DNA of 43,781 bases from a virus (IMGVR_UViG_2547132077_000004:1-43781); one strand, 5' to 3'. Positions 19,861 to 43,476 are shown, counted from the stretch's first letter. A program made the numbers and translations. The notes: a model not told the origin generated them from the sequence alone.

Positions 19861-20616
19861 TTAAAACGTATCACGTGACATCATGTCTTTTTCTAAAAAA
19901 AATCTTGATGAATATTGATGGGGAGGAACACCAAAATATCTTCTGAAAACACTTACAAAATATGACGTATTTTCATAACCGCATATCTCAGCAACTTTTC
20001 CAACAGAATATAAATTGTAGCTTAATAACCTTTCCGCCATCACCATTCGCTCTTCAAGAATTAACTTACTAAATGATAAGCCTTCGTGCTTTAATTTTCT
20101 TTTTAACAGACTTTCACTCAGATACAGTCTTGAAGATATATCACAAAGTCTCCATGCTGCAGATATATCCGTGTGAATAATAGCCTTAACTTTACTTCCT
20201 AAACTATTAAGACATCCAAATAAAAAACTTTGCACTATTTTCTCTGAAGATAAGATAGCAAGACATGCAAGTGATATTTGATTTCTAACAAAATCCACAG
20301 TTCTGCCATCACAATTCAAGCATGCAATCAAGTTCTTTAACAATGAAAAATCTTCACATTCCACCATCAAGTATGCCGGATAAAACCTTCTTACAGAAAA
20401 AGGTGAGAGTGTGTTGCTTTTAAAGAAATCATTAACTGTTTTCTCTTCAACATCTACGATCATTACATGATCTATATTTGATGAAAAAAAATCTTTTAAA
20501 TTGTAATCAATGAGAACAGCACTTCCTTTTTTAAACAAAATATCTTCTTTACCAATTCGGGCATCAAACGAGTTCAACACCAAAATGATAGAACATATGT
20601 ATGGCATATTATCCAC
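19861..20616 (-). CDS. AraC/XylS-family transcriptional regulator
   Basis: 251 aa; C-terminal AraC-type double HTH (GKVAEICGYENTSYFVSVFRRYFGVPPHQY); strongly AT-rich. Confidence 0.75.
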   Translation of the reverse strand: MDNMPYICSIILVLNSFDARIGKEDILFKKGSAVLIDYNLKDFFSSNIDHVMIVDVEEKTVNDFFKSNTLSPFSVRRFYPAYLMVECEDFSLLKNLIACLNCDGRTVDFVRNQISLACLAILSSEKIVQSFLFGCLNSLGSKVKAIIHTDISAAWRLCDISSRLYLSESLLKRKLKHEGLSFSKLILEERMVMAERLLSYNLYSVGKVAEICGYENTSYFVSVFRRYFGVPPHQYSSRFFLEKDMMSRDTF

Positions 20617-20956: not shown

Positions 20957-21916
20957 TTAATTTACCATCAGTCTTAGAGCCAGTTCGTCCGGATAGGGAT
21001 CGAAGTAATTCTGTGTAAGCAAGTAATCATTAGGATACTCACCCAGATAATGCTTCAGCAGAGTCAACGGCGCAAGAAGAGGTAATGTGCCAGAACGATA
21101 GTTAAGTATAACCTCGCTCAACTCTTTACGCTGGCGTGTACTTAAGTAGTTACTAAAATACCCCTGTATATGCATCAGCACATTCGTGTGATTTTTACGT
21201 GATGCAGGTTTTCTGAGAATCGCCATCAGCTTATCACGATACACCTCAAAGTATGATTCAAGGTCCGCCCACTCGTGTATTGCAGCCACAAATGGTCCCA
21301 TATCTTTATAGCCTGCCTGACTATGCGCCAACAACTGAAGCTTATAACGACTATGAAAAGCTAATAACTCTCTTCTTGATAATTTCTCCTTGTAAAGGTG
21401 ATTGAGCTCATGCAAAGCAAAAACTCTTTCAACAAAATTCTCACGAAGCACTGGATCATGTAATCGCCCATCCTCTTCAACCGGTAGCCAGGAAAACTTT
21501 TCCATCAAAGTGCTCGTAAATAGTCCCACTCCATCTTTACGACCTCGATTACCATTTTCATCATAGACACGCACGCGCTCCATACCACAGCTGGGAGATT
21601 TAGCACAAACCACAAACCCCGATACATCCTTTAATTTGTCCATATAAGAACGACTAAACTCTGTCATTCTCTCTGTCACATCCTCATTCTGGTCGTGGCT
21701 GAAACACATCCGTATATTTCCTTGCGTCGAGCGCACAAGACGTAGAGCAGGACGCGGAACTGGCAGCCCTATAGCCATTTCTGGACATACTGGTCTGAAT
21801 GTTACCCATTCCACTAATTTGTCCATTAAAAAGTCAGCTCTTTTGTGACCACCATCAAAACGAACAGCAGAACCGGCCAAACAACCGCTGATTCCAATCA
21901 CAGGTTTTTTTATCAT
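20957..21916 (-). CDS. DUF523/DUF1722 two-domain protein (YbgA-like)
   Basis: 319 aa; N-terminal IGISGCLAG...CPE and C-terminal helical region as in the YbgA family. Family assignment from memory. Confidence 0.55.
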   Translation of the reverse strand: MIKKPVIGISGCLAGSAVRFDGGHKRADFLMDKLVEWVTFRPVCPEMAIGLPVPRPALRLVRSTQGNIRMCFSHDQNEDVTERMTEFSRSYMDKLKDVSGFVVCAKSPSCGMERVRVYDENGNRGRKDGVGLFTSTLMEKFSWLPVEEDGRLHDPVLRENFVERVFALHELNHLYKEKLSRRELLAFHSRYKLQLLAHSQAGYKDMGPFVAAIHEWADLESYFEVYRDKLMAILRKPASRKNHTNVLMHIQGYFSNYLSTRQRKELSEVILNYRSGTLPLLAPLTLLKHYLGEYPNDYLLTQNYFDPYPDELALRLMVN

Positions 21917-26095: not shown

Positions 26096-27622
26096 TCAAA
26101 AATAAACCTCACCATCAACCATATATTTGAGAGTACTTATCGCCTGCTGGGCGGATATTGTTTTCATTAAAGGATAGTGTTTAAAAACAATGCCATTCAT
26201 AAAATAGATATCACAGGTTTTATTATCTGTATTGATTATGATTTTTTCGAATGTTTTATAGGCAAGTGTACGACATAGCTCTCGCCCATTTTTACTGGTT
26301 AAGTCAATAGCATGAAAATCACCAAGTGAACTCACCGCTTTACTCTTCAAAGTTTTTAATGATACAGAAGCCCTTCGTAATTCCTTATCTAATACTCTGA
26401 TTTTTTCTGCTATAGCGGTAACTTCAGGCGCAACAGATAATGCAGCAATTAAATTATTAATTTTCATCTGGAGCTCAATAATTTTCAACTCTAAAGTTTC
26501 ATTAGCATCTTTCTTGTTTTCAACTGGTTGGATTTTACTACAATTAAAAAGCAACTCATTAATGATATTATAATCAACCAAATCTCTCTTTATTGATGGC
26601 CTGTCACATCGATGCAGTCTTCTCATCGGACAAACATAATAGCCATACAAACTTCCAGATACCGCATGAACAATCATGGTATTACCACAAGCCTCGCACT
26701 TCATAACTGTTCGAAGTAGATTTATCAACATAGGATTTTTGCTACTATTGCTAATACCAAAAGGTGCCAACCGAATTTCCTGTACAGCGTAAAACAAATC
26801 ATCTGATATGACTCTGGGATAATAGCCAGCGATTTCACTTATTCCTTTACCTCTTGCACGATATGAAGGTACGCATATACCTATCAGAGCTTTATTCGCT
26901 AATAATTTTTCAATTACAGAAGGTCCCCATGCACTTTCTTTTCCTGAGAAATTCTTTACAGCATGATCATTTAAATACTTGGCTATTGCATTCAATGAGC
27001 GCCTTTCCATCCTGAGTTTAAAAATTAGCTCAATAGTTTTCACCCTGTCGGGGTCTGGAACAAAAGCCGTTCTTTTGTCATCTAAGGAGAGCCATCTCGG
27101 ACAAGACGCCGTCATAATCGTACCTGATTCCAGTGCATCCTGCCGTTTTTTCTTCCATGATAATTTAACCCGACTTGACTTTATCTCGCTTTCTTCATTT
27201 GCCCTTTGTGCTATAAGTATGGCTTTTATTAATGAATATGGCTCATTCAAAGAGTCAATATTATAGACTGTATTGTCGCAAAGAGTTATAACATCAATAC
27301 CGTGATTCAAAATCAATTTCAGACGTTCAATCGCTTCACCGACTTTTTCTCTTGAAAGTCTGTCCAGACTTTCAACTAACAATGTAGTTCCTGGCAATAT
27401 ATAACCATGCTCTATAGCATCTAAAAATTCCGAAAAAGCTCCTGATTGTGCATGCTTTCCTTTGAATGCACTTAATCCTAAATCTTCATATGTTATGGTA
27501 TCAAGATAATAATCACTATTTACCTTTAACCATTCAGCAATAAGTCTTCTCTGTCGGTTTAATGAGTCGCCAGACATCTGACCTGGTGATGAAAATCGCA
27601 TATATGCTATGGCTTTTTTCAT
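26096..27622 (-). CDS. Large serine recombinase (YbcK-like)
   Basis: 508 aa; N-terminal resolvase catalytic domain (IAYMRFSSPGQ, nucleophile Ser), recombinase domain, Cys-rich zinc-ribbon (CEACGN...C..C) and C-terminal coiled coil; AT-rich. Confidence 0.8.
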   Translation of the reverse strand: MKKAIAYMRFSSPGQMSGDSLNRQRRLIAEWLKVNSDYYLDTITYEDLGLSAFKGKHAQSGAFSEFLDAIEHGYILPGTTLLVESLDRLSREKVGEAIERLKLILNHGIDVITLCDNTVYNIDSLNEPYSLIKAILIAQRANEESEIKSSRVKLSWKKKRQDALESGTIMTASCPRWLSLDDKRTAFVPDPDRVKTIELIFKLRMERRSLNAIAKYLNDHAVKNFSGKESAWGPSVIEKLLANKALIGICVPSYRARGKGISEIAGYYPRVISDDLFYAVQEIRLAPFGISNSSKNPMLINLLRTVMKCEACGNTMIVHAVSGSLYGYYVCPMRRLHRCDRPSIKRDLVDYNIINELLFNCSKIQPVENKKDANETLELKIIELQMKINNLIAALSVAPEVTAIAEKIRVLDKELRRASVSLKTLKSKAVSSLGDFHAIDLTSKNGRELCRTLAYKTFEKIIINTDNKTCDIYFMNGIVFKHYPLMKTISAQQAISTLKYMVDGEVYF

Positions 27623-27878: not shown

Positions 27879-28211
27879 TTAATGTGGTGTGCTTCGTGAC
27901 AATAAATTAATAACCAACACACCGGCACAAATCAACATCATGCCTATAATGGCTGGCAGGTCCAGCCGTTGGCCGAAAAGTCCCCATGACAGTAAGCTAA
28001 TCAGGACAATACCGACTCCTGACCAGATAGCATAAGCAATCCCTGTAGGAATATAAGCCAGCGTCTGAGCTAATAACCAGAATGATGCACAATAACAAAT
28101 AATTGTACCAACAGATGGCCATAACCGTGTAAAACCTTCTGAAAACTTCATTAAGGTTGTACCAATGACCTCTGCAAGTATTGCACCACCAAGATAAATA
28201 TAAGGGTTCAT
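27879..28211 (-). CDS. emrE: Small multidrug resistance (SMR) efflux protein EmrE
   Basis: 110 aa from MNPYIYLGGAILAEVIGTTLMKFSEGF, with the conserved membrane-embedded Glu; near-identical to E. coli EmrE as I recall it. The ORF-track start at 28265 is an upstream extension. Confidence 0.9.
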   Translation of the reverse strand: MNPYIYLGGAILAEVIGTTLMKFSEGFTRLWPSVGTIICYCASFWLLAQTLAYIPTGIAYAIWSGVGIVLISLLSWGLFGQRLDLPAIIGMMLICAGVLVINLLSRSTPH

Positions 28212-28278
28212 AGAATATTCTTTCCTGTTCAAACTGGAGAGAATTGTACTACAGTTTGAACTCAACTCACCTGTTTCA

Positions 28279-32803: not shown

Positions 32804-33100
32804 ATGAACGCTTATTACATTCAGGATCGTCTTGAGGCTCAGAGCTGGACGCGTCACTACCAGCAGATCGCCCGTGAAGAGAAAGAGGCAGAACTGGCAG
32901 ACAACATGGAAAAAGGTCTGCCCCAGCACCTGTTTGAATCACTCTGCATCGATCATTTACAACGCCACGGGGCCAGCAAAAAAGCCATTACCCGTGCGTT
33001 TGATGACGATGTTGAGTTTCAGGAGCGCATGGCAGAACACATCCGGTACATGGTTGAAACCATTGCTCACCACCAGGTTGATATTGATTCAGAGGTATAA
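32804..33100 (+). CDS. gam: Gam, host RecBCD inhibitor
   Basis: 98 aa, matches lambda GamS ([32 protein letters not shown]...). Confidence 0.85.
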
Positions 33101-33105
33101 AACGG

Positions 33106-33891
33106 ATGAGTACAGCACTCGCAACGCTGGCTGGGAAGCTGGCTGAACGTGTCGGCATGGATTCTGTCGACCCACAGGAACTGATCACCACTCTTCGCCA
33201 GACGGCATTTAAAGGTGATGCCAGCGATGCGCAGTTCATCGCATTACTGATCGTTGCCAACCAGTACGGCCTTAATCCATGGACGAAAGAAATTTACGCC
33301 TTTCCTGATAAGCAGAATGGCATCGTTCCGGTGGTGGGCGTTGATGGCTGGTCCCGCATCATCAATGAAAACCAGCAGTTTGATGGTATGGACTTTGAGC
33401 AGGACAATGAATCCTGCACATGCCGGATTTACCGCAAGGACCGCAATCATCCGATCTGCGTTACCGAGTGGATGGATGAATGCCGCCGCGAACCATTCAA
33501 AACTCGCGAAGGCAGAGAAATCACGGGGCCGTGGCAGTCGCATCCCAAACGGATGTTACGGCATAAAGCCATGATTCAGTGTGCCCGTCTGGCCTTCGGA
33601 TTTGCTGGTATCTATGACAAGGATGAAGCCGAGCGCATTGTCGAAAATACTGCATACACTGCAGAACGTCAGCCAGAACGCGACATCACTCCGGTTAACG
33701 ATGAAACCATGCAGGAGATTAACACTCTGCTGATCGCCCTGGATAAAACATGGGATGACGACTTATTGCCGCTCTGTTCCCAGATATTTCGCCGCGACAT
33801 TCGTGCATCGTCAGAACTGACACAGGCCGAAGCAGTGAAAGCTCTTGGATTCCTGAAACAGAAAGCCACTGAGCAGAAGGTGGCAGCATGA
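33106..33891 (+). CDS. bet: Bet (Red-beta) single-strand annealing protein
   Basis: 261 aa, matches lambda Bet essentially throughout as I recall it. Confidence 0.9.
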
Positions 33892-34568
33892 CACCGGACA
33901 TTATCCTGCAGCGTACCGGGATCGACGTGAGAGCTGTCGAACAGGGGGATGATGCATGGCACAAATTACGGCTCGGCGTCATCACCGCTTCAGAAGTTCA
34001 CAACGTGATAGCAAAGCCCCGCTCAGGAAAGAAGTGGCCTGACATGAAAATGTCCTACTTCCACACCCTGCTGGCTGAGGTTTGCACCGGTGTGGCTCCG
34101 GAAGTTAATGCTAAGGCGCTGGCCTGGGGAAAACAGTACGAGAACGACGCCAGAACCCTGTTTGAATTCACTTCCGGCGTGAATATTACTGAATCCCCGA
34201 TCATCTATCGCGACGAAAGTATGCGCACCGCCTGCTCTCCCGATGGTTTATGCAGTGACGGCAACGGCCTTGAACTGAAATGCCCGTTTACCTCCCGGGA
34301 TTTCATGAAATTCCGGCTCGGTGGTTTCGAGGCAATAAAATCGGCTTACATGGCCCAGGTGCAGTACAGCATGTGGGTGACGCGAAAAGATGCCTGGTAC
34401 TTTGCCAACTATGACCCGCGCATGAAGCGTGAAGGCCTGCATTATGTCGTGATTGAGCGGAATGAAAAGTATATGGCGAGTTTTGACGAGATGGTGCCGG
34501 AGTTCATCGAAAAAATGGACGAGGCACTGGCTGAAATTGGTTTTGTATTTGGGGAGCAATGGCGATGA
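33888..34568 (+). CDS. exo: Exo (Red-alpha) 5'-3' exonuclease
   Basis: 226 aa, matches lambda Exo; 4-nt overlap with bet. Confidence 0.9.
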
Positions 34569-34719
34569 CGCATCCTCACGATAATATCCGGGTAGGCGCG
34601 ATCACTTTCGTCTACTCCGTTACAAAGCGAGGCTGGGTATTTCCCGGGCTTTCTGTTATCCGAAATCCGCTGAAAGCCCAGCGGCTGGCTGAGGAGATAA
34701 ATAATAAACGGGAGGCGGT

Positions 34720-35964
34720 ATGAACGAGGCAGCAATAATTATTGTCCCAACAGACATCAGCAAGAAAATTCGCGAAATAGAAGAGTCCTACAACAGATAT
34801 ATAAATGAATTTCGCATCCCTAATGATCATAAGATAATCGTGAATTATTCAGCAGGAAAAGACAGCACTGCCACACTCGCAGTGGCGCACACATTATTCG
34901 GCAAACAGGTACATGCTGTTATGGCAGACACGGATAATGAGCATAATCTAACTGTCGAATTCGCCAGGAGCATTCATGAGCAGATCGGTTGTAGCCCTGT
35001 GCAGGTTGTGAAGCGGATTTACACTGAAGAAGATTTTGCCAAACGACGAATTTATCTGCAAAAAAACTGGTCTAAACGACAGATGATCCGCATGGGAGCA
35101 TACCGTGGCATAGTCATGCCTTCCCTCGCACGTTCTGACACCAAATTCGGGCAAGCCTGGAAGCGCACAGCAGAACGCTGGGGAATTGAGTTCGAAACTG
35201 CTCTTGATGCTGCGCTTTCCGTTATGCACCCATCCGGTAATAGCTTTTTGGATTGCTCCCTTCTGCATGGCAAGTTCCCTATGCTGCGCGACCGATTCTG
35301 TACAGACGAACTGAAAATTCAGATAGCTTTCGACGCAGCCATAAAGCCGCTCCTTGATGCTGGCGATGTTATCGTACAATGGTCTGGTGTTCGCGCGGAT
35401 GAGTCCTCTAAGCGCGCTGGATATGAGAGGTTTTCCCGCGATATGCGCGACGCCGATTTTCTCTACAACTTCCTGCCGCTCCACAAATGGACGGCTGAGG
35501 ACGTATTCGCAGTTCACAAATATTTCGGAATTAAGCCAAATCCACTTTATATGCAAGGTGCGTCTCGTGTTGGCTGCATGAATTGCGTGCTATGCAACAA
35601 AGAGGAAATTGCAGAGACGGCTGCGCGCTGGCCAGAGCACATCAAAAAGCACAAACAATGGGAGTTGAAGGTACGCCTTGCTAGTAGATGGGTACACTGG
35701 ATGAGCGTAGGAGAGATAAGCCAACGCTGGATGAAACAGTTCAATCTGCCACTTGGTCGAAATATTCAACTTTTTGGGCTAAAACCTGATGTGCAACACA
35801 TCGACTGGTCAGGATTTTATGGTCCTCGTGGAGATCTTAATTCTCCGGGTGTTTATGAAGTCGTAGAGTGGGCAAAAACAGGGCGCGGTGGCAAGGTCTA
35901 CGATCTTGTAAAAGCAAGTCTCGATATAGAGGTTTGCTCTTCACGCTACGGTCTGTGCGAATAA
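34720..35964 (+). CDS. PAPS-reductase-like (PP-loop ATP-pyrophosphatase superfamily) protein with Cys-rich C-terminal extension
   Basis: 414 aa; PP-loop motif (IIVNYSAGKDSTATLAVAH) near the N-terminus; C-terminal CMNCVLC cluster; same strand as the early-left operon. Confidence 0.65.
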   Translation: MNEAAIIIVPTDISKKIREIEESYNRYINEFRIPNDHKIIVNYSAGKDSTATLAVAHTLFGKQVHAVMADTDNEHNLTVEFARSIHEQIGCSPVQVVKRIYTEEDFAKRRIYLQKNWSKRQMIRMGAYRGIVMPSLARSDTKFGQAWKRTAERWGIEFETALDAALSVMHPSGNSFLDCSLLHGKFPMLRDRFCTDELKIQIAFDAAIKPLLDAGDVIVQWSGVRADESSKRAGYERFSRDMRDADFLYNFLPLHKWTAEDVFAVHKYFGIKPNPLYMQGASRVGCMNCVLCNKEEIAETAARWPEHIKKHKQWELKVRLASRWVHWMSVGEISQRWMKQFNLPLGRNIQLFGLKPDVQHIDWSGFYGPRGDLNSPGVYEVVEWAKTGRGGKVYDLVKASLDIEVCSSRYGLCE

Positions 35965-35975
35965 TACTAAGTTAT

Positions 35976-36578
35976 TTACTCATTATTTTTTGATAATACA
36001 ACTTTCTGCCAAGTTATCTGGTTACGTTGAAAACTATCTTTATTTATTGACGTAACTCGCAATGTTTTCAGACCTAACTGAGACGCTAACTCAAGAAGTT
36101 CCTCAGTATTAACAACGTTAATGTTTCTATCTGGTTCGGGAGGTCCTAAGCGCAATGTAATTATCATTCTCCCATTCAATGTTAAAAGATCAGTTAGCGT
36201 CTCTAGTGAGATTTTTTGCTCTTTTTTTGAAAGATGCATCCATACAGCACTGACTAAAATAAGGTCGAACTTTAGATTCATTGCTTTAACACTATGAAGA
36301 AAAGGCAATGAATCATCTAACCATATAATATGGTTAGATTTATAATATGAAGATGCCAAATTTCGCATCTTTTCACTTGGTTCAACAGCTATTACTTTAT
36401 AACCTAATTCATCTAACGCAGCAGCATCACGGCCGGAACCTGAACCGACATCCAAAGAGACACCCTTAGATTGTAAAATAAACTCTTCAACATCCTGAAA
36501 GATAGAGTAAAAATCAAGTGATATATAATCGGCAAATAAGCGATCAGCATTATTGTCATAAAACTTCCACGAAGTCAC
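35976..36578 (-). CDS. Class I SAM-dependent methyltransferase (small, TehB-like architecture)
   Basis: 200 aa; motif I (LDVGSGSGRDAAALDELGYKVIAVE) and motif post-I/II (FDLILVSAVWMHL); AT-rich; start overlaps the upstream gene by 4 nt. Confidence 0.7.
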   Translation of the reverse strand: MTSWKFYDNNADRLFADYISLDFYSIFQDVEEFILQSKGVSLDVGSGSGRDAAALDELGYKVIAVEPSEKMRNLASSYYKSNHIIWLDDSLPFLHSVKAMNLKFDLILVSAVWMHLSKKEQKISLETLTDLLTLNGRMIITLRLGPPEPDRNINVVNTEELLELASQLGLKTLRVTSINKDSFQRNQITWQKVVLSKNNE

Positions 36579-37207
36579 TTTGATAATCCTGATTTTGCTT
36601 CGATAAATAATCCTGACTCAATATTTTTAATTGTTGCTTTGTATGTATTATGTGAAATGTCTTTTGAAAACAAGTTTGGATGATATACCCCAGCAATATT
36701 AACAAAGAAGCAAACAATAAGCATTACTGCCCAGCACGACACTACTATGTAACCAGTTTCCTTATTATCATAGCTAGAGGGCAATTTAAATCCAGCGTCT
36801 CTAGTAATTTCATTTAAAATATAGTTTTTTGAAGGATCTTCAATGTTTTTTTGTAGTGCTATTTTCGAACCAATTAAAGACCTTAAGCGATAAAGTGTAA
36901 TCATTGTTGTGAAATCAAACAATGCTAACACTGCAAAGATAATCCATAGGGAACTTTCATTTGCCAGTGTTGTTGCATACCACAACCCACCATTGACAGC
37001 AATTACGAAACTAGGGATTTGCCACATGAGCTGATTTAAAGCCCGCATGTGTTGTCCTGCTTCAAGATAAGTAATCTCCTGCAGCTTCTGATACCAACGG
37101 ATTGCCTCAATTTTTAGATTTTCGTTAATCTGTTGCTGTTGCTGATTTACCATGTAATCCCTGCTCAACGAACTGAAACTTTTAATGATGCTATCACAAC
37201 TTATCAA
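36575..37207 (-). CDS. Predicted integral membrane protein (three hydrophobic helices), unknown family
   Basis: 210 aa; soluble N-terminal about 60 aa (poly-Gln QQQQQ) then helices IPSFVIAVNGGLWYATTL, LWIIFAVLALFDFTTMITLY, GYIVVSCWAVMLIVCFFVNIAGVY; translationally coupled to the methyltransferase. Confidence 0.55.
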   Translation of the reverse strand: MISCDSIIKSFSSLSRDYMVNQQQQQINENLKIEAIRWYQKLQEITYLEAGQHMRALNQLMWQIPSFVIAVNGGLWYATTLANESSLWIIFAVLALFDFTTMITLYRLRSLIGSKIALQKNIEDPSKNYILNEITRDAGFKLPSSYDNKETGYIVVSCWAVMLIVCFFVNIAGVYHPNLFSKDISHNTYKATIKNIESGLFIEAKSGLSK

Positions 37208-37521
37208 GAAGATGAATTTCGTTATTTAAATTTAATATATCGGAGGCTTTTATCAGAACTTATACATAATACAAGCCCGATGGCTGTCACCAGACAGGAG
37301 CATCAATAACATTTGCCGTAGCGTACTGAAGAAGCACCGCGAAACGGTAACGCTGAGGGATTCACACCGACTCATTTAAGCCTGGCGATCGGCATGTTAA
37401 ACGGCATCTTTAAGGAGCGATGAACATGAAAAGCAAAATCATCAGGGAGCTACAGGCTCCTTTTTTATTATTCGCATTCACCCTCAAGCGTATTAACCAA
37501 CAATTCAGAGATTAATGGAAG

Positions 37522-37740
37522 ATGGCAGACATCATTGATTCAGCATCAGAAATCGAAGAATTACAGCGCAATACAGCAATAAAAATGCGTCGTCTGAACC
37601 ACCAGGCTATATCTGCCACTCATTGTTGTGAGTGTGGCGATCCGATAGATGAACGAAGACGCCTGGCCGTTCAGGGTTGTCGGACTTGTGCAAGTTGCCA
37701 GGAGGAGATCGAACTTAAGAACAAACAATGGGGACTGTGA
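37522..37740 (+). CDS. DksA/TraR-family C4 zinc-finger protein
   Basis: 72 aa; CCECGDPIDERRR ... CRTCASC four-Cys zinc finger with acidic N-terminus; common upstream of xis in lambdoid phages. Confidence 0.75.
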   Translation: MADIIDSASEIEELQRNTAIKMRRLNHQAISATHCCECGDPIDERRRLAVQGCRTCASCQEEIELKNKQWGL

Positions 37741-38066: not shown

Positions 38067-38482
38067 GGCCTGCCAGCTTCTCAAGATATCCAGACCTACA
38101 GCAATCATGTCAATCCAATAAATGGAGACTCCAAGTGGAAGAAGAAATCTTCACTCGTGAAGAGGCTGCGTCGTATCTGAAGGTAGACAAAGGCACTATC
38201 ACGCAGTGGATACGAAGTGGACGACTTCAAGCCGCAAAGATAAATCCAGATAAACCTAAAAGCCCATATCGCATTTGCAAGTCAGACTGCATTGCGGCGC
38301 TTAAGTCTGTGAGACACAATAGCGCGGTGAATGCGGTTGATGTGCAGGAGGTTAAAGCATGTCAATCAAACTGCGCGGTGGCACATGGCACTGCGATTTC
38401 GTCGCGCCAGATGGATCAAGAGTTAGACGCTCTCTTGAAACATCGGACAAGAGGCAAGCGCAAGAACTTCACGATCGTCTGA
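38063..38482 (+). CDS. xis: Excisionase/AlpA-like HTH protein (start uncertain; overlaps int)
   Basis: HTH segment FTREEAASYLKVDKGTITQWIRSGRL immediately upstream of int; the ORF overlaps int by 124 nt in another frame, so the true start, or an alternative start codon, is unresolved. Confidence 0.5.
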   Translation: MRPASFSRYPDLQQSCQSNKWRLQVEEEIFTREEAASYLKVDKGTITQWIRSGRLQAAKINPDKPKSPYRICKSDCIAALKSVRHNSAVNAVDVQEVKACQSNCAVAHGTAISSRQMDQELDALLKHRTRGKRKNFTIV

Positions 38483-39519
38483 AAGCAGAAGCGTGGAGAG
38501 TAAAAAATCTCGGTGAATCACCGAAAAAGCTATTCAAGGAAGCCTGCATACGGTGGCTGCGAGAGAAAGCGGATAAGAAGTCCATTGATGATGACAAGAG
38601 CATTATATCGTTCTGGATGTTGCACTTCAGAGAAACCATTCTCTCTGACATAACAACAGAAAAAATAATGGAGGCGGTAGACGGGATGGAAAACCGCCGC
38701 CATCGCCTGAACTGGGAGATGAGCCGGGATAGGTGTTTGCGGCTTGGCAAGCCAGTGCCGGAGTATAAACCAAAGCTGGCAAGCAAAGGAACGAAGACGC
38801 GGCATCTGGCAATACTTCGCGCTATTCTCAATATGGCTGTTGAATGGGGATGGCTTGACAGGGCGCCCAAAATATCAACACCACGCGTTAAGAATGGACG
38901 AATCAGATGGCTTACAGAGGAGGAATCGAAGCGCCTGTTTGCAGAAATTGCTCCTCATTTCTTCCCTGTGGTCATGTTTGCAATCACGACAGGCCTTCGT
39001 CGTTCCAACGTTACAGACCTTGAGTGGTCACAGGTCGATCTGGATAAGAAAATGGCATGGATGCACCCTGATGAAACAAAAGCTGGCAATGCGATCGGAG
39101 TTCCTCTTAACGAAACCGCATGCCAGATATTAAGAAAACAGCAGGGGCTCCATAAGAGATGGGTATTTGTCCACACCAAACCTGCCTACCGAAGCGACGG
39201 AACAAAAACAGCAGCGGTAAGGAAGATGAGAACCGACAGCAACAAGGCATGGAAGGGAGCGTTAAAGCGGGCAGGCATTAGCAACTTCCGCTTCCATGAC
39301 CTGAGGCATACCTGGGCAAGCTGGCTGGTTCAGTCCGGTGTCTCTCTTCTTGCACTTAAAGAGATGGGAGGATGGGAAACTCTCGAAATGGTTCAAAGAT
39401 ACGCCCACCTTTCAGCCGGGCATCTCACCGAGCACGCGAGCAAAATCGATGCGATTATAAGTCGCAATGGCACAAATACGGCACAAGAGGAGAACGTAGT
39501 TTACTTAAATGCGAGGTAA
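38359..39519 (+). CDS. int: Tyrosine integrase
   Basis: 386 aa; C-terminal catalytic signature (HDLRHTWASWLVQSGVSLLALKEMGGWETLEMVQRYAHL) with R..HxxR..Y; ends 15 bp from the att core. Confidence 0.9.
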   Translation: MSIKLRGGTWHCDFVAPDGSRVRRSLETSDKRQAQELHDRLKAEAWRVKNLGESPKKLFKEACIRWLREKADKKSIDDDKSIISFWMLHFRETILSDITTEKIMEAVDGMENRRHRLNWEMSRDRCLRLGKPVPEYKPKLASKGTKTRHLAILRAILNMAVEWGWLDRAPKISTPRVKNGRIRWLTEEESKRLFAEIAPHFFPVVMFAITTGLRRSNVTDLEWSQVDLDKKMAWMHPDETKAGNAIGVPLNETACQILRKQQGLHKRWVFVHTKPAYRSDGTKTAAVRKMRTDSNKAWKGALKRAGISNFRFHDLRHTWASWLVQSGVSLLALKEMGGWETLEMVQRYAHLSAGHLTEHASKIDAIISRNGTNTAQEENVVYLNAR

Positions 39520-39579: not shown

Positions 39580-40065
39580 TATAAGAATCCGCTTCTAATT
39601 CAAAGCATTACCCCATCAACACTGCGCTCACACGTCCCACCACATCAAAACATGTAAAGCCTTGCAAGTCATTGCGAGGCCTTATGTGTCTCAGTTTTGT
39701 CCCACCTTGTATTACGACTTGCATAGCCAATGAAGATAAATGTGACAACAAACGGCGCAGCAGTCTTCTTTTCCTTCATACTTTCCCCACCCAGCATGCA
39801 TACCTTCTACCATAACTGTAGTGAATGTGTTATGAGCGAGATGCGGACATTGGCAGCCTCAACAACATGACTGGCATTGAGGCGTATTAATCAGTGGGGA
39901 GCAGGTCACGCCATCTATAATGGAAAACGTGCTGGTGACCTGCCGATACTCAGTCTCAGGCAGCGAATACAATTACACATAGTTCGAAAAATATGTTAGC
40001 GCAACCAGTGATATCCGCGGCTTTCTCTGGAAAAATGTGTTAGTTTCTCTAAGCCATGTCCATTG

Positions 40066-41001
40066 CTAAAATAGGTATTCTTTTATTCTGTAAAAATCGG
40101 ATATTTTCTCAAGCGCTGATGTAGGAATGGTTTTTTTGTTTATACTCAAACCTGTTTGTGTATTTTTTAGTTCTGCGATAATGTATTCATCATCAATATA
40201 ATCCTCTCTCTCTCCAATGAAGTTTATTATGAATTCTTTTGCTTTTAAAGCTTTTGTGATGTGATATTTTTCATTGAATAGAATATACACTTTGAAAATA
40301 GAATTGATGTGCTCATTAAAAATCGGCATTATTGGGAAAGATTCATCCATCTGTGTCAGGTCAGTCTTTACCTGACTCCCCCACTTAGAAAATCCACGAA
40401 TCAATTCATCTCTCATGAAATATACGATTAACTCTACAATTAAAGTACTACTGGTTTCATCAAGTGATTTTGATATCGTGTACGAAAGTGGTGGCATTCC
40501 ACAATGCTGAACAAAATTTCTGAGCTTATACATGAATCTATATGAAAACTTGCTATCAAATTCATTTCCCGTCAGCGTTTTAAACTCGACAAATTCCGTT
40601 GAATTAGCCCCATACCTCCTGTTAATACTGGTTTCCATATGGTCAAGTAAAGTTTTCACTGACATCATATAGTTCAGTATTCTTGTATTTAAAAAGAATT
40701 TGAAGGTTTTGAAGGGATATGAACCAATAAAAGAAGGTTCTTCGGCTACTTTTTTAACCGTTTCATCCAGAAGTTCCATTAGTGACTCATAGTTCAATCT
40801 TACATATTCTACTAAGGCAAAATCATTCACAAACTCCATAAGTATATTTTTTTGTGTATCATACACTTCAATTTCCTCATTACTAAGGGGTCTTATTTCA
40901 TTTATCTCGTTTACTTCACTTCCATCTGAAATTGATTCTTTAGCAAGGATTATAGTGGATTCGCTCAAGCTTATCTCCCTGATTAATTTTCTGTTAATCA
41001 A
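40066..41001 (-). CDS. Hypothetical protein, strongly AT-rich, unknown family
   Basis: 311-aa ORF, Asn/Lys/Ile/Glu/Phe-rich, divergent from the DUF262/DUF1524 gene across a 585-bp intergenic region. Confidence 0.45.
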   Translation of the reverse strand: MINRKLIREISLSESTIILAKESISDGSEVNEINEIRPLSNEEIEVYDTQKNILMEFVNDFALVEYVRLNYESLMELLDETVKKVAEEPSFIGSYPFKTFKFFLNTRILNYMMSVKTLLDHMETSINRRYGANSTEFVEFKTLTGNEFDSKFSYRFMYKLRNFVQHCGMPPLSYTISKSLDETSSTLIVELIVYFMRDELIRGFSKWGSQVKTDLTQMDESFPIMPIFNEHINSIFKVYILFNEKYHITKALKAKEFIINFIGEREDYIDDEYIIAELKNTQTGLSINKKTIPTSALEKISDFYRIKEYLF

Positions 41002-41586
41002 TATGGAACCCTAAAAGAGCACACTTGATCTGTATTATATCGGCTTAAGTTGCCAAGAATAGCCCCATCTTGATCAATATAATAAGTTTTTTATTCCCCT
41101 CTGACCCTGCATACCACCAATGTCTGTTCCTGGCACTTAGCAGCCCTAGAGACAGTGGCGTAAAGTCATGGAGGAGCGGTGGGAGGAGGTGCAAATCCTC
41201 TCATACAAAAAATACGTAAAATCGATAACGGCTTGACATAATTCAATACTAGCACTATCGGAAGTTCACCAGCCAGCCGCAGCTGACTATTGTATACGAC
41301 ATGTCTGCAGCTTCAATACCCGATAGTGCCATCTACAATGATTTAGCAGCGCTTGGATAAAAAAACAGCAGCAACAATGTGCTAACAATCTCGAAAAAAC
41401 ACCGACGCAATGGAGAACAGACAAAAGAGAATATCCAATGAAACCGTAGCACGTCAGCATTCAAAAGCGGGATTTCTCGTTTTTACTTCACCAGCAACAA
41501 ATACACTGTATCATGACTACATAAAAATGATTATTCTGACTCAGATGAATTTCTTACTCTTGTGGAATGTCACTTATAGGTAAACA

Positions 41587-43476
41587 ATGAAATCCGAAAC
41601 GCTAACCATCCAGCAACTTTTCCAAAATCAACGACAATATCGTGTTCCATTCTATCAACGTGCCTACGTATGGACGCAACAAAACCAATGGTCAGCTTTG
41701 CTGGAGGATATCTTCGAAAAAGCACATAGCCGACTTTTGGGAACAAAACCAACTCCCCATTTCCTTGGCGCGGTGGTGCTGGAACCTCAACTCAAAAACA
41801 GCTTGTTAGGTGTAGATACCATACATATTATTGACGGCCAGCAACGTTTAACCACTCTTCAATATATTCTGGCATCCATTCGATTATCATTGCGTGCTAC
41901 AGGCCTTTCTGATTTGGAAGGGTTAGTATTGACTTGCTTGAAAAATACAAACGAAGCAACTATGCGAAATAAAAAGGTAGAATGCTTCAAACTGTGGCCA
42001 ACTTTTCGAGACCAAACTCATTTTATTCAAAGTTTTAATGTTGAAAACATTGACGATCTCCGTGATGTATTTTCTGATAGCTTCACGCAACATGGTACGT
42101 TACGTAAACATTTCAACCACCCGCCGTCACTAGAGGCATTATGGTTTTTTACTGAAGCCTTTATAAAATGGATTAAAATAGAAAAGTACTCACCACATGA
42201 AAATGCTGTAGCACTAATTGAGGCTGTCTTGACGGATCTGAAACTGGTAAGCATATTTCTCGAAGCTGAAGATGATGCCCAAATAATTTTTGAAACATTA
42301 AATGGCCGAGGGGCGGAACTTCATGCCACGGATCTTATTCGCAACTACATCTTTATGTGCGCTGAGCATGAAAATATTAATGCTATTGAATTATATGAAA
42401 ATGAATGGAAGAGCTTTGAAGATACATACTGGTCGGAAAGGCAACGCCGTGGACGTATTAATAAACCACGCATGGAGTGGCTAGTGCATGCGACATTGCA
42501 ATCAGAAAGGCAACGTGAAATTGATCTGTCTCGTCTTTACAATGAGTATCGTGATTATGTAAGTAAGGACTTGCCTTCACAACGAGCTGATCTGCAAGTA
42601 AAGCGCCTCAAACAATATGCATCACAATATAAAGAATTAGTTGGTGGTTTTGGCACAACCCCCATCTCACACTTTGGACATCGCATCGCAGCCTATGATG
42701 TGACGACACTTTATCCGCTTGCTTTGTTCATTTCGATAGCTAATATCGCCGATGATGAGAAAGCAGCCATGTATAATGATCTTGTCTCCTACGTAGTACG
42801 AAGAGCCGTATGTGGCCTGACGCCAAAGAATTACAACAATGTATTTATGAATGTATTGCGGCACTTGTCTAAAACGGAAATTTCCAGTGTTGAGTTACGT
42901 AATATCCTCAATAGCTTAAATGGCGAAGCCTCACGTTGGCCTGGTGACTCAGAATTTCTCAATGCTTGCATCAATGCTCCACTTTATCCTGGCAGGCTCG
43001 ACGCACCGAAAATGCGCTCAATGTTAACGGAACTTGAAAGAGAACTTTGTCGCCAAGTGAAGACAGAGAAGCCTGATGTTCCAAATCTTTCCAATCTCGA
43101 TATCGATCATCTTATGCCTCAAAGTTGGTATTCCTGTTGGCCTCTCGAAAATGGTCATATGGTGACAAATTCAGATGCAACGGTATTGAACCAAATTGTT
43201 CTGTCTGGAACAGATCTTACCCCTGAGCAGCTACTGGTAAGGAAACGGCAACAAGCGATAGCTACGTTGGGAAATCTAACTTTGCTTAACCTTAGCGTAA
43301 ACCGTTCTGTTCAGAATGCTGTATTTCTGAAAAAACGTGATGCTCTCATCGTCCACACCAATCTACGACTGAACATACCACTTATACTTAAGGATAAATG
43401 GGATGAGGGTGAAATCCTGAAGCGGGGTAAAAAGTTGGGGGAAATTGCATTGAAAGTATGGCCAAAACACGATTAA
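41587..43476 (+). CDS. DUF262 (ParB-like NTPase) + DUF1524 (His-Me finger nuclease) protein, GmrSD-family type IV restriction enzyme-like
   Basis: 629 aa; N-terminal YRVPFYQRAYVWT and IIDGQQRLTTLQ (DUF262 DGQQR motif); C-terminal LDIDHLMPQSW ... LGNLTLLNLSVNRSVQN (DUF1524-like). Confidence 0.75.
   Translation: MKSETLTIQQLFQNQRQYRVPFYQRAYVWTQQNQWSALLEDIFEKAHSRLLGTKPTPHFLGAVVLEPQLKNSLLGVDTIHIIDGQQRLTTLQYILASIRLSLRATGLSDLEGLVLTCLKNTNEATMRNKKVECFKLWPTFRDQTHFIQSFNVENIDDLRDVFSDSFTQHGTLRKHFNHPPSLEALWFFTEAFIKWIKIEKYSPHENAVALIEAVLTDLKLVSIFLEAEDDAQIIFETLNGRGAELHATDLIRNYIFMCAEHENINAIELYENEWKSFEDTYWSERQRRGRINKPRMEWLVHATLQSERQREIDLSRLYNEYRDYVSKDLPSQRADLQVKRLKQYASQYKELVGGFGTTPISHFGHRIAAYDVTTLYPLALFISIANIADDEKAAMYNDLVSYVVRRAVCGLTPKNYNNVFMNVLRHLSKTEISSVELRNILNSLNGEASRWPGDSEFLNACINAPLYPGRLDAPKMRSMLTELERELCRQVKTEKPDVPNLSNLDIDHLMPQSWYSCWPLENGHMVTNSDATVLNQIVLSGTDLTPEQLLVRKRQQAIATLGNLTLLNLSVNRSVQNAVFLKKRDALIVHTNLRLNIPLILKDKWDEGEILKRGKKLGEIALKVWPKHD

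Follow-up and report, generated by a model that had tools for sequence, protein, structure and literature searches.

What does a lambdoid prophage gain from two small, AT-rich genes, one for a membrane protein and one for a methyltransferase (MTase), carried on the strand opposite its recombination genes? The question is raised by the viral sequence IMGVR_UViG_2547132077_000004:1-43781, a stretch of 43,781 nucleotides (nt) that we analyzed as a whole (here, the window). It holds a lambdoid prophage at the argU site (tRNA-Arg), and the gene pair occupies positions 35976-37207. A first-pass annotation of this DNA had proposed that the pair is a self-contained moron, serving either small-molecule methylation and detoxification or phage exclusion. 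That the pair is self-contained was not borne out by our comparative data, which connect it to an adjacent PAPS-reductase-like gene and to DNA phosphorothioation genes. The reading that we favor, at a probability of roughly 0.55, is that the two genes encode a membrane-anchored MTase that works with a phosphorothioation sulfurtransferase as a travelling accessory unit.

The stop codon of the membrane-protein gene and the start codon of the MTase gene share the four nucleotides GTGA in the window, and the two-gene, translationally coupled unit described earlier stands; judged by the sequence, the overlap is one of translational coupling. We gathered homologous loci from genomes (6 species), IMG/VR (18 contigs), and metagenomes (80 loci), together with exact-protein lookups, scored all open reading frames (ORFs) of these loci with profiles of both proteins, and clustered the membrane proteins at 70% identity. 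Co-occurrence of the pair elsewhere, which the first-pass annotation had proposed to look for, was found with the MTase gene directly downstream in 38 of the 65 clusters and with the two proteins fused in another 14. No MTase was detected in the remaining 13, which were mostly contigs of 1 to 3 kb or had another partner enzyme instead. In all loci with a membrane-module homolog and enough sequence, the MTase was directly downstream, typically with an overlap of 1 to 4 nt or a gap of no more than 16 nt. The fusions, one of which RefSeq annotates on a plasmid of Rhizobium phaseoli, were seen in P0130 and in 7 of 10 long remote homologs, and WP_081282819.1 is a natural example from Rhizobium. They begin with the membrane module and end with an MTase of the same family (SAVWMH and LRLG motifs). 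The MTase of the window belongs to this family and is encoded directly downstream of the membrane gene. Together, obligate pairing and fusion provide strong evidence, comparative in kind, that the two proteins would act as one membrane-anchored enzyme.

The membrane module also has other partners. A gene with a HIT domain directly follows it in locus L129 (1032-1862, after sspD) and in locus L125 (9674-10938, beside dndB), while an RNase T exonuclease is fused to it in P0232 and encoded by the following gene in L141 (1475-3555) and L159 (9959-11387). These enzymes replace the MTase or are added to it, and they too adjoin sspD or dndB. HIT enzymes of the HINT1 type desulfurate nucleoside 5'-phosphorothioates (PMC8775712).

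The evidence for a tie to phosphorothioation came from the neighborhoods of these loci. Dnd and Ssp genes were detected by single-sequence phmmer queries, so that the counts given here are approximate; the identity of the query proteins in PADLOC was SspB (4e-110), SspC (E = 0), SspD (1e-118), DndB (3e-167), DndC (2e-221), DndD (8e-214), and DndE (6e-19). Among 31 nonredundant clusters with at least 4 kb of flanking sequence on each side, a phosphorothioation-family gene lay within 10 kb in 25 and within 1.5 kb in 19. The 25 linked clusters were associated with SspBCD (10 clusters), DndBCDE (8 clusters), or a phage PAPS reductase alone (7 clusters). Outside prophages, SspBCD or DndBCDE genes adjoin the module at most loci. 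In many cases the module lies within the operon: it follows dndE on the same strand after a gap of 16 to 47 nt (L017 and L152), lies 12 nt after sspD (L145) or between sspC and sspD (L162), and overlaps the sspD stop codon (L129 and L141) or, in L154 and on the Rhizobium plasmid, a gene resembling dndB. The RefSeq gene order on that plasmid is “DNA phosphorothioation-associated DGQHR protein,” the fusion, TusA, FtsK-like, DndD, and DndC. Because dnd or ssp is present in only ca. 6% of gut genomes (PMC12914056), adjacency of this kind cannot credibly be put down to chance. Among the other neighbors in 18 linked loci, a cysteine desulfurase (SspA/DndA) was present in seven, and the restriction partners were PbeA in four and SspH in two; with desulfurases near and restriction partners varied, the tie appears to be to the modification side. 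From these gene neighborhoods, the pair or its fused form looks like an accessory of phosphorothioation gene sets (Dnd, Ssp, and phage DndC/SspD homologs) and not like stray lambda cargo.

The window has its own DndC/SspD-family gene, which converges on the pair tail to tail, its stop codon being only 11 nt from that of the MTase gene. The product is a PP-loop protein with an SAGKDS motif (Pfam PAPS_reduct, 6.8e-21), for which PADLOC gave matches to SspD (6e-19), BrxP (4e-16), and DndC (6e-9), and it corresponds to phrog_424, a distinct phage subfamily of the DndC/SspD/BrxP PP-loop family. This gene was found in 29 complete Escherichia coli genomes, the same number as the pair. In IMG/VR the pair adjoins a PAPS gene in 17 of 18 loci, some of which form a clade whose PAPS gene is of another subfamily. 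In enterobacterial prophages, where the PAPS gene is the conserved companion of the pair, the triad occupies the exo-xis slot in E. coli and Enterobacter ludwigii and the nin region in Klebsiella pneumoniae, and the arrangement of pair and PAPS gene recurs in Enterobacter soli. Its members have codiverged, with identities of 52 to 67% for the membrane protein, 58 to 65% for the MTase, and 77 to 85% for the PAPS-reductase-like protein. Phage PAPS reductases are DndC/SspD homologs found in antidefense hotspots, and one of them promotes evasion of the host Dnd system, according to PMC13551039, which cites Piel et al. 2022. An obligate three-gene phage module was considered and rejected: about 30 of the 38 close PAPS homologs in IMG/VR are without the membrane-MTase pair, their downstream genes vary, and some prophages with the pair have no PAPS gene.

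The slot past the phage PAPS gene varied among loci L049 to L078: some had TraR and int there, L057 had a replication protein A of the P2 type (Phage_GPA, 1e-126), and others had small genes of unrelated kinds. Several of these loci had a gene that is Dam-like by its N-terminal sequence just upstream. A clade of Klebsiella aerogenes and Citrobacter prophages has no PAPS gene, and there a small HTH_73 gene is transcribed divergently from the pair (L004, 7665-7907; L022, 7668-7910); in L004 the pair adjoins DUF6998 (a weak match to a methyl-directed restriction endonuclease), NACHT, and HATPase_c_3 genes. In L014, L015, and L016 (8413-9918 and 4149-7852; Polaromonas, Hydrogenophaga, and Rhizobacter), the pair lies by a HipA-like kinase, a ParB-like protein (weak PD-Lambda-5_A matches), and a helicase (weak PbeA matches), and Dnd/Ssp genes were not detected at these loci.

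Regarding the membrane protein itself, the 210 amino acids (aa) reported earlier correspond to the mechanical ORF read from the first TTG (36575-37207, minus strand), but the likely product is a 192-aa protein beginning MVNQQQQQ, which starts at the ATG at 37153 with AGGG upstream, as it does in RefSeq. The polyglutamine N terminus pointed out in the same description is present in the window protein but has not been kept in its homologs. As for the three hydrophobic helices, three are predicted in the AlphaFold2 model (predicted local distance difference test [pLDDT], 70), while a Kyte-Doolittle scan found only two strongly hydrophobic stretches, the first segment being weaker. The loop between helices 2 and 3 is rich in Lys and Arg, and the charge distribution suggests that it is cytoplasmic. 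Searches of Pfam, PHROG, PADLOC, and NCBIfam gave no family match for this protein; the Pfam families DUF6427 and DUF1512 were rejected, both being sub-threshold only.

The first-pass annotation had reckoned with the chance that this ORF lacks conservation, and the opposite was found: the gene pair is kept, and the homologs form 68 clusters at 90% identity, reaching down to 31% identity with invariant motifs. A remote search recovered 220 representatives at an E value of ≤0.001 among 1.84 billion. The conserved parts begin with a polar N-terminal helix (E-A-G-Q-H-x-R-x-L-N-Q-x-M-W-Q-x-P), which leads into a G-G-L-W-Y segment and then a hydrophobic helix. An R-L-R motif comes next, and a variable linker separates it from the final hydrophobic helix, which carries C-W. 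Residues R37, W44, P47, G55, G56, W58, R89, and R91 are invariant in 47 diverse members, among them the window protein, which carries the module core R-x-L-N-Q-x-M-W-Q-x-P ... G-G-L-W ... R-x-R.

The MTase gene starts with GTG, with an AGGA Shine-Dalgarno sequence 8 nt upstream. Its product scored above the Pfam cutoffs for Methyltransf_11, 25, 23, and 12, and its predicted fold is confident (pLDDT, 95.6). A Rossmann-like fold, a glycine-rich motif I (LDVGSGSGRD), and an acidic residue after strand 2 place it in class I; E66-P67 and an SAVWMHL motif follow. The description as a small, 200-aa class I S-adenosylmethionine (SAM) MTase of the small-molecule type was upheld by the Pfam matches and the fold. 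Its “TehB-like” character was upheld only in part: Pfam TehB was passed marginally (23.0 bits versus a cutoff of 20.4), but the NCBIfam TehB equivalog cutoffs were missed about tenfold (18 to 24 bits versus 218 to 303). The NCBIfam equivalogs UbiG and CpaM were also far under their cutoffs, and there was weak similarity to TPMT as well as to TehB. The catalytic motif (D/N/S)PP(Y/F/W), as defined in PMC10853773, is missing from the translated MTase. Judged from these profiles and motifs, the protein is a class I family member and neither a TehB ortholog nor a DNA amino-MTase. The SAM-binding residues are invariant across the family, as are Y7, F23, W86, W113, H115, R143, and W190.

Only one PADLOC match was obtained for the MTase, to mad2 of the MADS system (PDLC04134, 7e-15), and it covers the Rossmann-fold region (model positions 290 to 446 of 492). 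In the eight-gene MADS operon, mad2 is an N6 DNA methyltransferase, and mad6, mad7, and mad8 are mandatory (MADS preprint). In the window, mad2 alone was matched among the mad genes, and the neighbors are phage early genes. With no (D/N/S)PP(Y/F/W) motif and no other mad gene, this lead was rejected; the match reflects the shared fold only. The earlier statement that the pair has no named defense system or lambda function therefore holds, in that the membrane protein was matched by none of PADLOC 2.0, PHROG, Pfam, and NCBIfam, and the one PADLOC match of the MTase was the generic one to mad2.

Relatives of the MTase at ca. 40% identity occur without the membrane module, and the idea of an MTase family that is always membrane paired was rejected, these relatives being alone or with an HNH nuclease. 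One relative in Streptomyces sits among acetyltransferase and glyoxalase genes. Another, in an island on the chromosome of Vibrio sp. YMD68 (L010, 7001-8689; 41% identity), is followed after 4 nt by a 356-aa HNH_2 nuclease (PADLOC HNH, 7e-25); this MTase-HNH pair, a candidate two-gene unit, is flanked by a relaxase gene on one side and by BrxR and Wadjet genes on the other. In IMGVR_UViG_2713897055_000011 (L024, 2975-3455; identical to L042), the MTase is split in two ORFs by an apparent frameshift in an otherwise identical copy, and variants of 194 aa, making up the E. coli clusters P0070 and P0071, cover 77% of the MTase.

How might such a module work? According to the reading favored here, the small membrane protein would be the anchor or partner on which the 200-aa class I enzyme docks. 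The module would be the prophage copy of an accessory unit that accompanies a PP-loop sulfurtransferase (DndC, SspD, or phage “PAPS reductase”), with the convergent gene at 34720-35964 as the putative partner in the window. At the inner membrane face, the MTase would methylate a sulfur-bearing soft nucleophile coming from the sulfurtransferase; candidate substrates range from sulfide, persulfide, and thiophosphate to phosphorothioate nucleotides, phosphorothioate dinucleotides, and the phosphorothioate linkage itself. In this way, reactive sulfur or phosphorothioate species would be disposed of or turned over. That the MTase acts on a sulfur-bearing soft nucleophile made or released by the sulfurtransferase is a tentative proposal, which we hold at clearly less than even odds; the handling of a sulfur-bearing anion would fit the weak TehB/TPMT similarity, the Arg and His residues kept across the family, and the alternative partners of the membrane module (HIT enzymes and exonucleases). 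Going by gene order, the pair would be transcribed in the lysogen from its own promoter, whereas in lytic growth the pL transcript that includes the PAPS gene would run antisense through it. Phage PAPS reductases have been proposed as anti-Dnd factors, and the pair may serve in the same conflict, on one side or the other. A bolder version, which we consider rather improbable, is that the module represents a new step, a membrane-tethered S-methylation of phosphorothioate linkages or nucleotides that would form, with the HIT and RNase T partners, a dedicated processing or erasing layer, captured by temperate phages along with a DndC/SspD homolog for counterdefense or exclusion.

Several observations weigh against a membrane-anchored accessory of phosphorothioation. 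The phmmer queries for DndB, DndD, DndE, SspB, and SspC matched nothing in the window, where the PAPS gene alone matched Dnd/Ssp queries; without DndD/DndE, SspB/SspC, and a cysteine desulfurase, the window cannot make phosphorothioate DNA by the known route. Six of the 31 well-flanked clusters (the K. aerogenes and Citrobacter HTH_73 prophages, the L014 group, and L136) had no phosphorothioation gene nearby. The pair is on the strand opposite the PAPS gene, so that the two are probably expressed in different states. The signs of topology also conflict: the loop between helices 2 and 3 looks cytoplasmic by its charge, but the fusions to cytoplasmic enzymes, with RNase T preceding the module and the MTase following it, require an even number of membrane crossings. 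Both termini would then be inside, so that one of the hydrophobic segments may not span the membrane.

The alternative that survives best is an independent two-gene module for antiphage defense or superinfection exclusion, in which a membrane-damaging effector would be paired with an MTase acting as sensor or regulator (e.g., of SAM or S-adenosylhomocysteine) and proximity to phosphorothioation genes would reflect the clustering of defense genes. The pair does lie in prophage cargo slots and defense islands, with NACHT, HATPase_c_3, AbiEi/AbiEii, Tn7-like cargo, and PbeA/SspH among its neighbors, and its AT richness, its place on the lysogen-expressed strand, and the combination of the membrane module with different enzyme domains (MTase, HIT, and RNase T) agree with it. 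However, clustering of defense genes would not account for so specific and tight an adjacency, which is found within ssp and dnd operons, with both unrelated system types, and with the phage homologs. The membrane module, which had no match in PADLOC, has strongly conserved polar motifs, and the full conservation of the SAM-binding motifs fits an active enzyme. We therefore regard an independent exclusion module as unlikely.

It could also be that the target is phosphorothioate DNA, the module S-methylating the backbone sulfur and thereby erasing or turning over the mark or damaging the DNA, as phage counterdefense or exclusion against phosphorothioate-carrying hosts or phages. Alkylated phosphorothioates are labile, which counts in favor of this idea, as do the linkage to modification genes and the similarity of the enzyme to MTases of soft nucleophiles. 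The implication of phage PAPS reductases in Dnd evasion, as given in the report cited above, points the same way. Yet no DNA-binding or target-recognition domain is evident in the model of the 200-aa enzyme, no DNA MTase appears among its top structural neighbors, and a membrane anchor would be odd for an enzyme acting genome wide on DNA. The case for a DNA target is thus decidedly doubtful.

A generic detoxification moron unrelated to phosphorothioation (for tellurite, selenite, halide, or thiol; TehAB-like) was the first alternative of the earlier annotation. The order of a membrane-protein gene followed by an MTase gene resembles tehA-tehB, the Pfam TehB model was marginally passed, and the Streptomyces relative has acetyltransferase and glyoxalase genes around it, but the tenfold shortfall against the TehB equivalogs, a membrane protein that is unrelated to TehA (no Pfam match), and a phosphorothioation linkage that would be left unexplained make this explanation very improbable. 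Of the tellurite/selenite idea, no more is left than the methylation of a soft nucleophile in general. Finally, that these are chance ORFs or decayed genes without function, for which one could cite the frameshifted MTase of one IMG/VR copy (L024/L042) and the AT-rich region, has a negligible probability and is already refuted by the conservation data, which span Enterobacteriaceae, Betaproteobacteria, and Alphaproteobacteria and include fusions, conserved gene order, and invariant motifs, next to a high-confidence MTase model.

In order to put the favored accessory unit into perspective, we compared it with known systems. Homologs of the module lie inside or directly beside the Dnd (DndABCDE) and Ssp (SspABCD) gene sets, and the neighbor in the window belongs to the DndC/SspD/BrxP family, but the membrane protein and the MTase are not described components of either system. 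The membrane-MTase module is not mentioned in PMC10853773, PMC12707154, or PMC12914056, and no description of it was found in the phosphorothioation or BREX literature searched, which has a passing remark that methyltransferases near phosphorothioation genes may act independently. Nor are the two ORFs discussed in the phi458 paper. The phage PAPS reductases proposed to be anti-Dnd are of the same gene family and likewise in a variable early region, but they were reported alone, whereas here there is a pair on the opposite strand. In the TehA/TehB operon, too, the gene for a membrane protein precedes that for a small class I SAM MTase, and there is weak TehB profile similarity. TehA, however, is a 10-helix channel, while the partner here is small, comes from an unnamed family unrelated to TehA, and is encoded in a context of phosphorothioation and not of tellurite resistance. 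The structural-genomics MTases RPA2492 (3e23) and cg3271 (3h2b) are uncharacterized and 18 to 19% identical, and we know of no membrane partner for either.

What is new here is a probable, previously undescribed accessory enzyme of known phosphorothioation gene sets and of their phage offshoots. No natural modification of the DNA backbone other than phosphorothioation is known, and there is still no good account of the sulfur chemistry involved, of how the mark is turned over, or of why sites are occupied only partially and dynamically. A module shared by the unrelated Dnd and Ssp machineries and by phage homologs points to a missing accessory function, possibly the handling of sulfur or phosphorothioate by-products, regulation, or erasure. 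Phage PAPS reductases, suspected of being anti-Dnd, gain a conserved partner for study. The module is small (1.2 kb), is present in a culturable E. coli prophage (phi458, SE11, and FORC_041), and can be tested directly.

With regard to the setting, the ORF map, the GC content, and the annotation agreed with the earlier description, in which the pair is AT-rich cargo lying between exo and xis-int and running counter to the early-left operon (Table 1). The pair has a GC content of 0.33 to 0.36 (36000-37249), versus 0.50 to 0.53 for the recombination genes upstream (33000-35749). The same 1.4 kb is carried by 29 of 5,426 complete E. coli genomes and by phage phi458, and the pair was present in 6 of 185,579 species representatives. 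It is rare and not core, and the common core-genome operon that the first-pass annotation had allowed for was not what we found.

Table 1. Features of the early-left region of the prophage around the gene pair, with positions counted from the first nucleotide of the window.
Feature	Coordinates	Strand	Remarks
gam		+	upstream of bet
bet	33106-33891	+	
exo	33888-34568	+	
DUF1317 gene		+	between exo and the PAPS-reductase-family gene
PAPS-reductase-family gene	34720-35964	+	414 aa; convergent neighbor of the pair
MTase gene	35976-36578	-	200 aa; WP_000205067.1
GTGA overlap	36575-36578	-	TGA (stop, membrane gene) and GTG (start, MTase gene)
Membrane-protein gene	36575-37153	-	192 aa; WP_000248037.1; RefSeq start
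Upstream noncoding stretch	37154-37300	-	presumed promoter of the pair, inferred only
TraR/DksA gene	37522-37740		past the pair
DUF4222 gene, then helix-turn-helix/xis-like gene			between traR and int
Integrase gene	38359-39519		followed by tRNA-Arg

A promoter scan found no site, and no strong sigma-70 consensus, in the noncoding stretch upstream of the pair (37154-37300); over all the sequence scanned it gave fewer promoter-like sites than it did in shuffles (3 versus 6.2). Between the pair and traR, at 37240-37430 (plus strand), the identical sequence of FORC_041 has a frameshifted “ZapA” pseudogene in RefSeq, which is followed by a terminator-like hairpin at 37444-37462.

Other parts of the window hold further cargo. 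A 319-aa gene at 20957-21916 (minus strand) combines 2-thiouracil desulfurase (PF04463) and DUF1722 domains and is the second sulfur/nucleobase enzyme of the window, possibly by coincidence. Beyond the integrase/tRNA-Arg junction, at 41587-43476 (plus strand), there is a 629-aa type IV restriction enzyme of the GmrSD type (DUF262/DUF1524), with a low-GC stretch nearby (39750-41250); FORC_041 differs past the tRNA, having fimZ/sfm genes there instead. A large serine recombinase (26096-27622), an SMR-family (EmrE-like) transporter (27879-28265), and an AraC-family regulator (19861-20616), all on the minus strand, are reminiscent of DLP12-type cargo.

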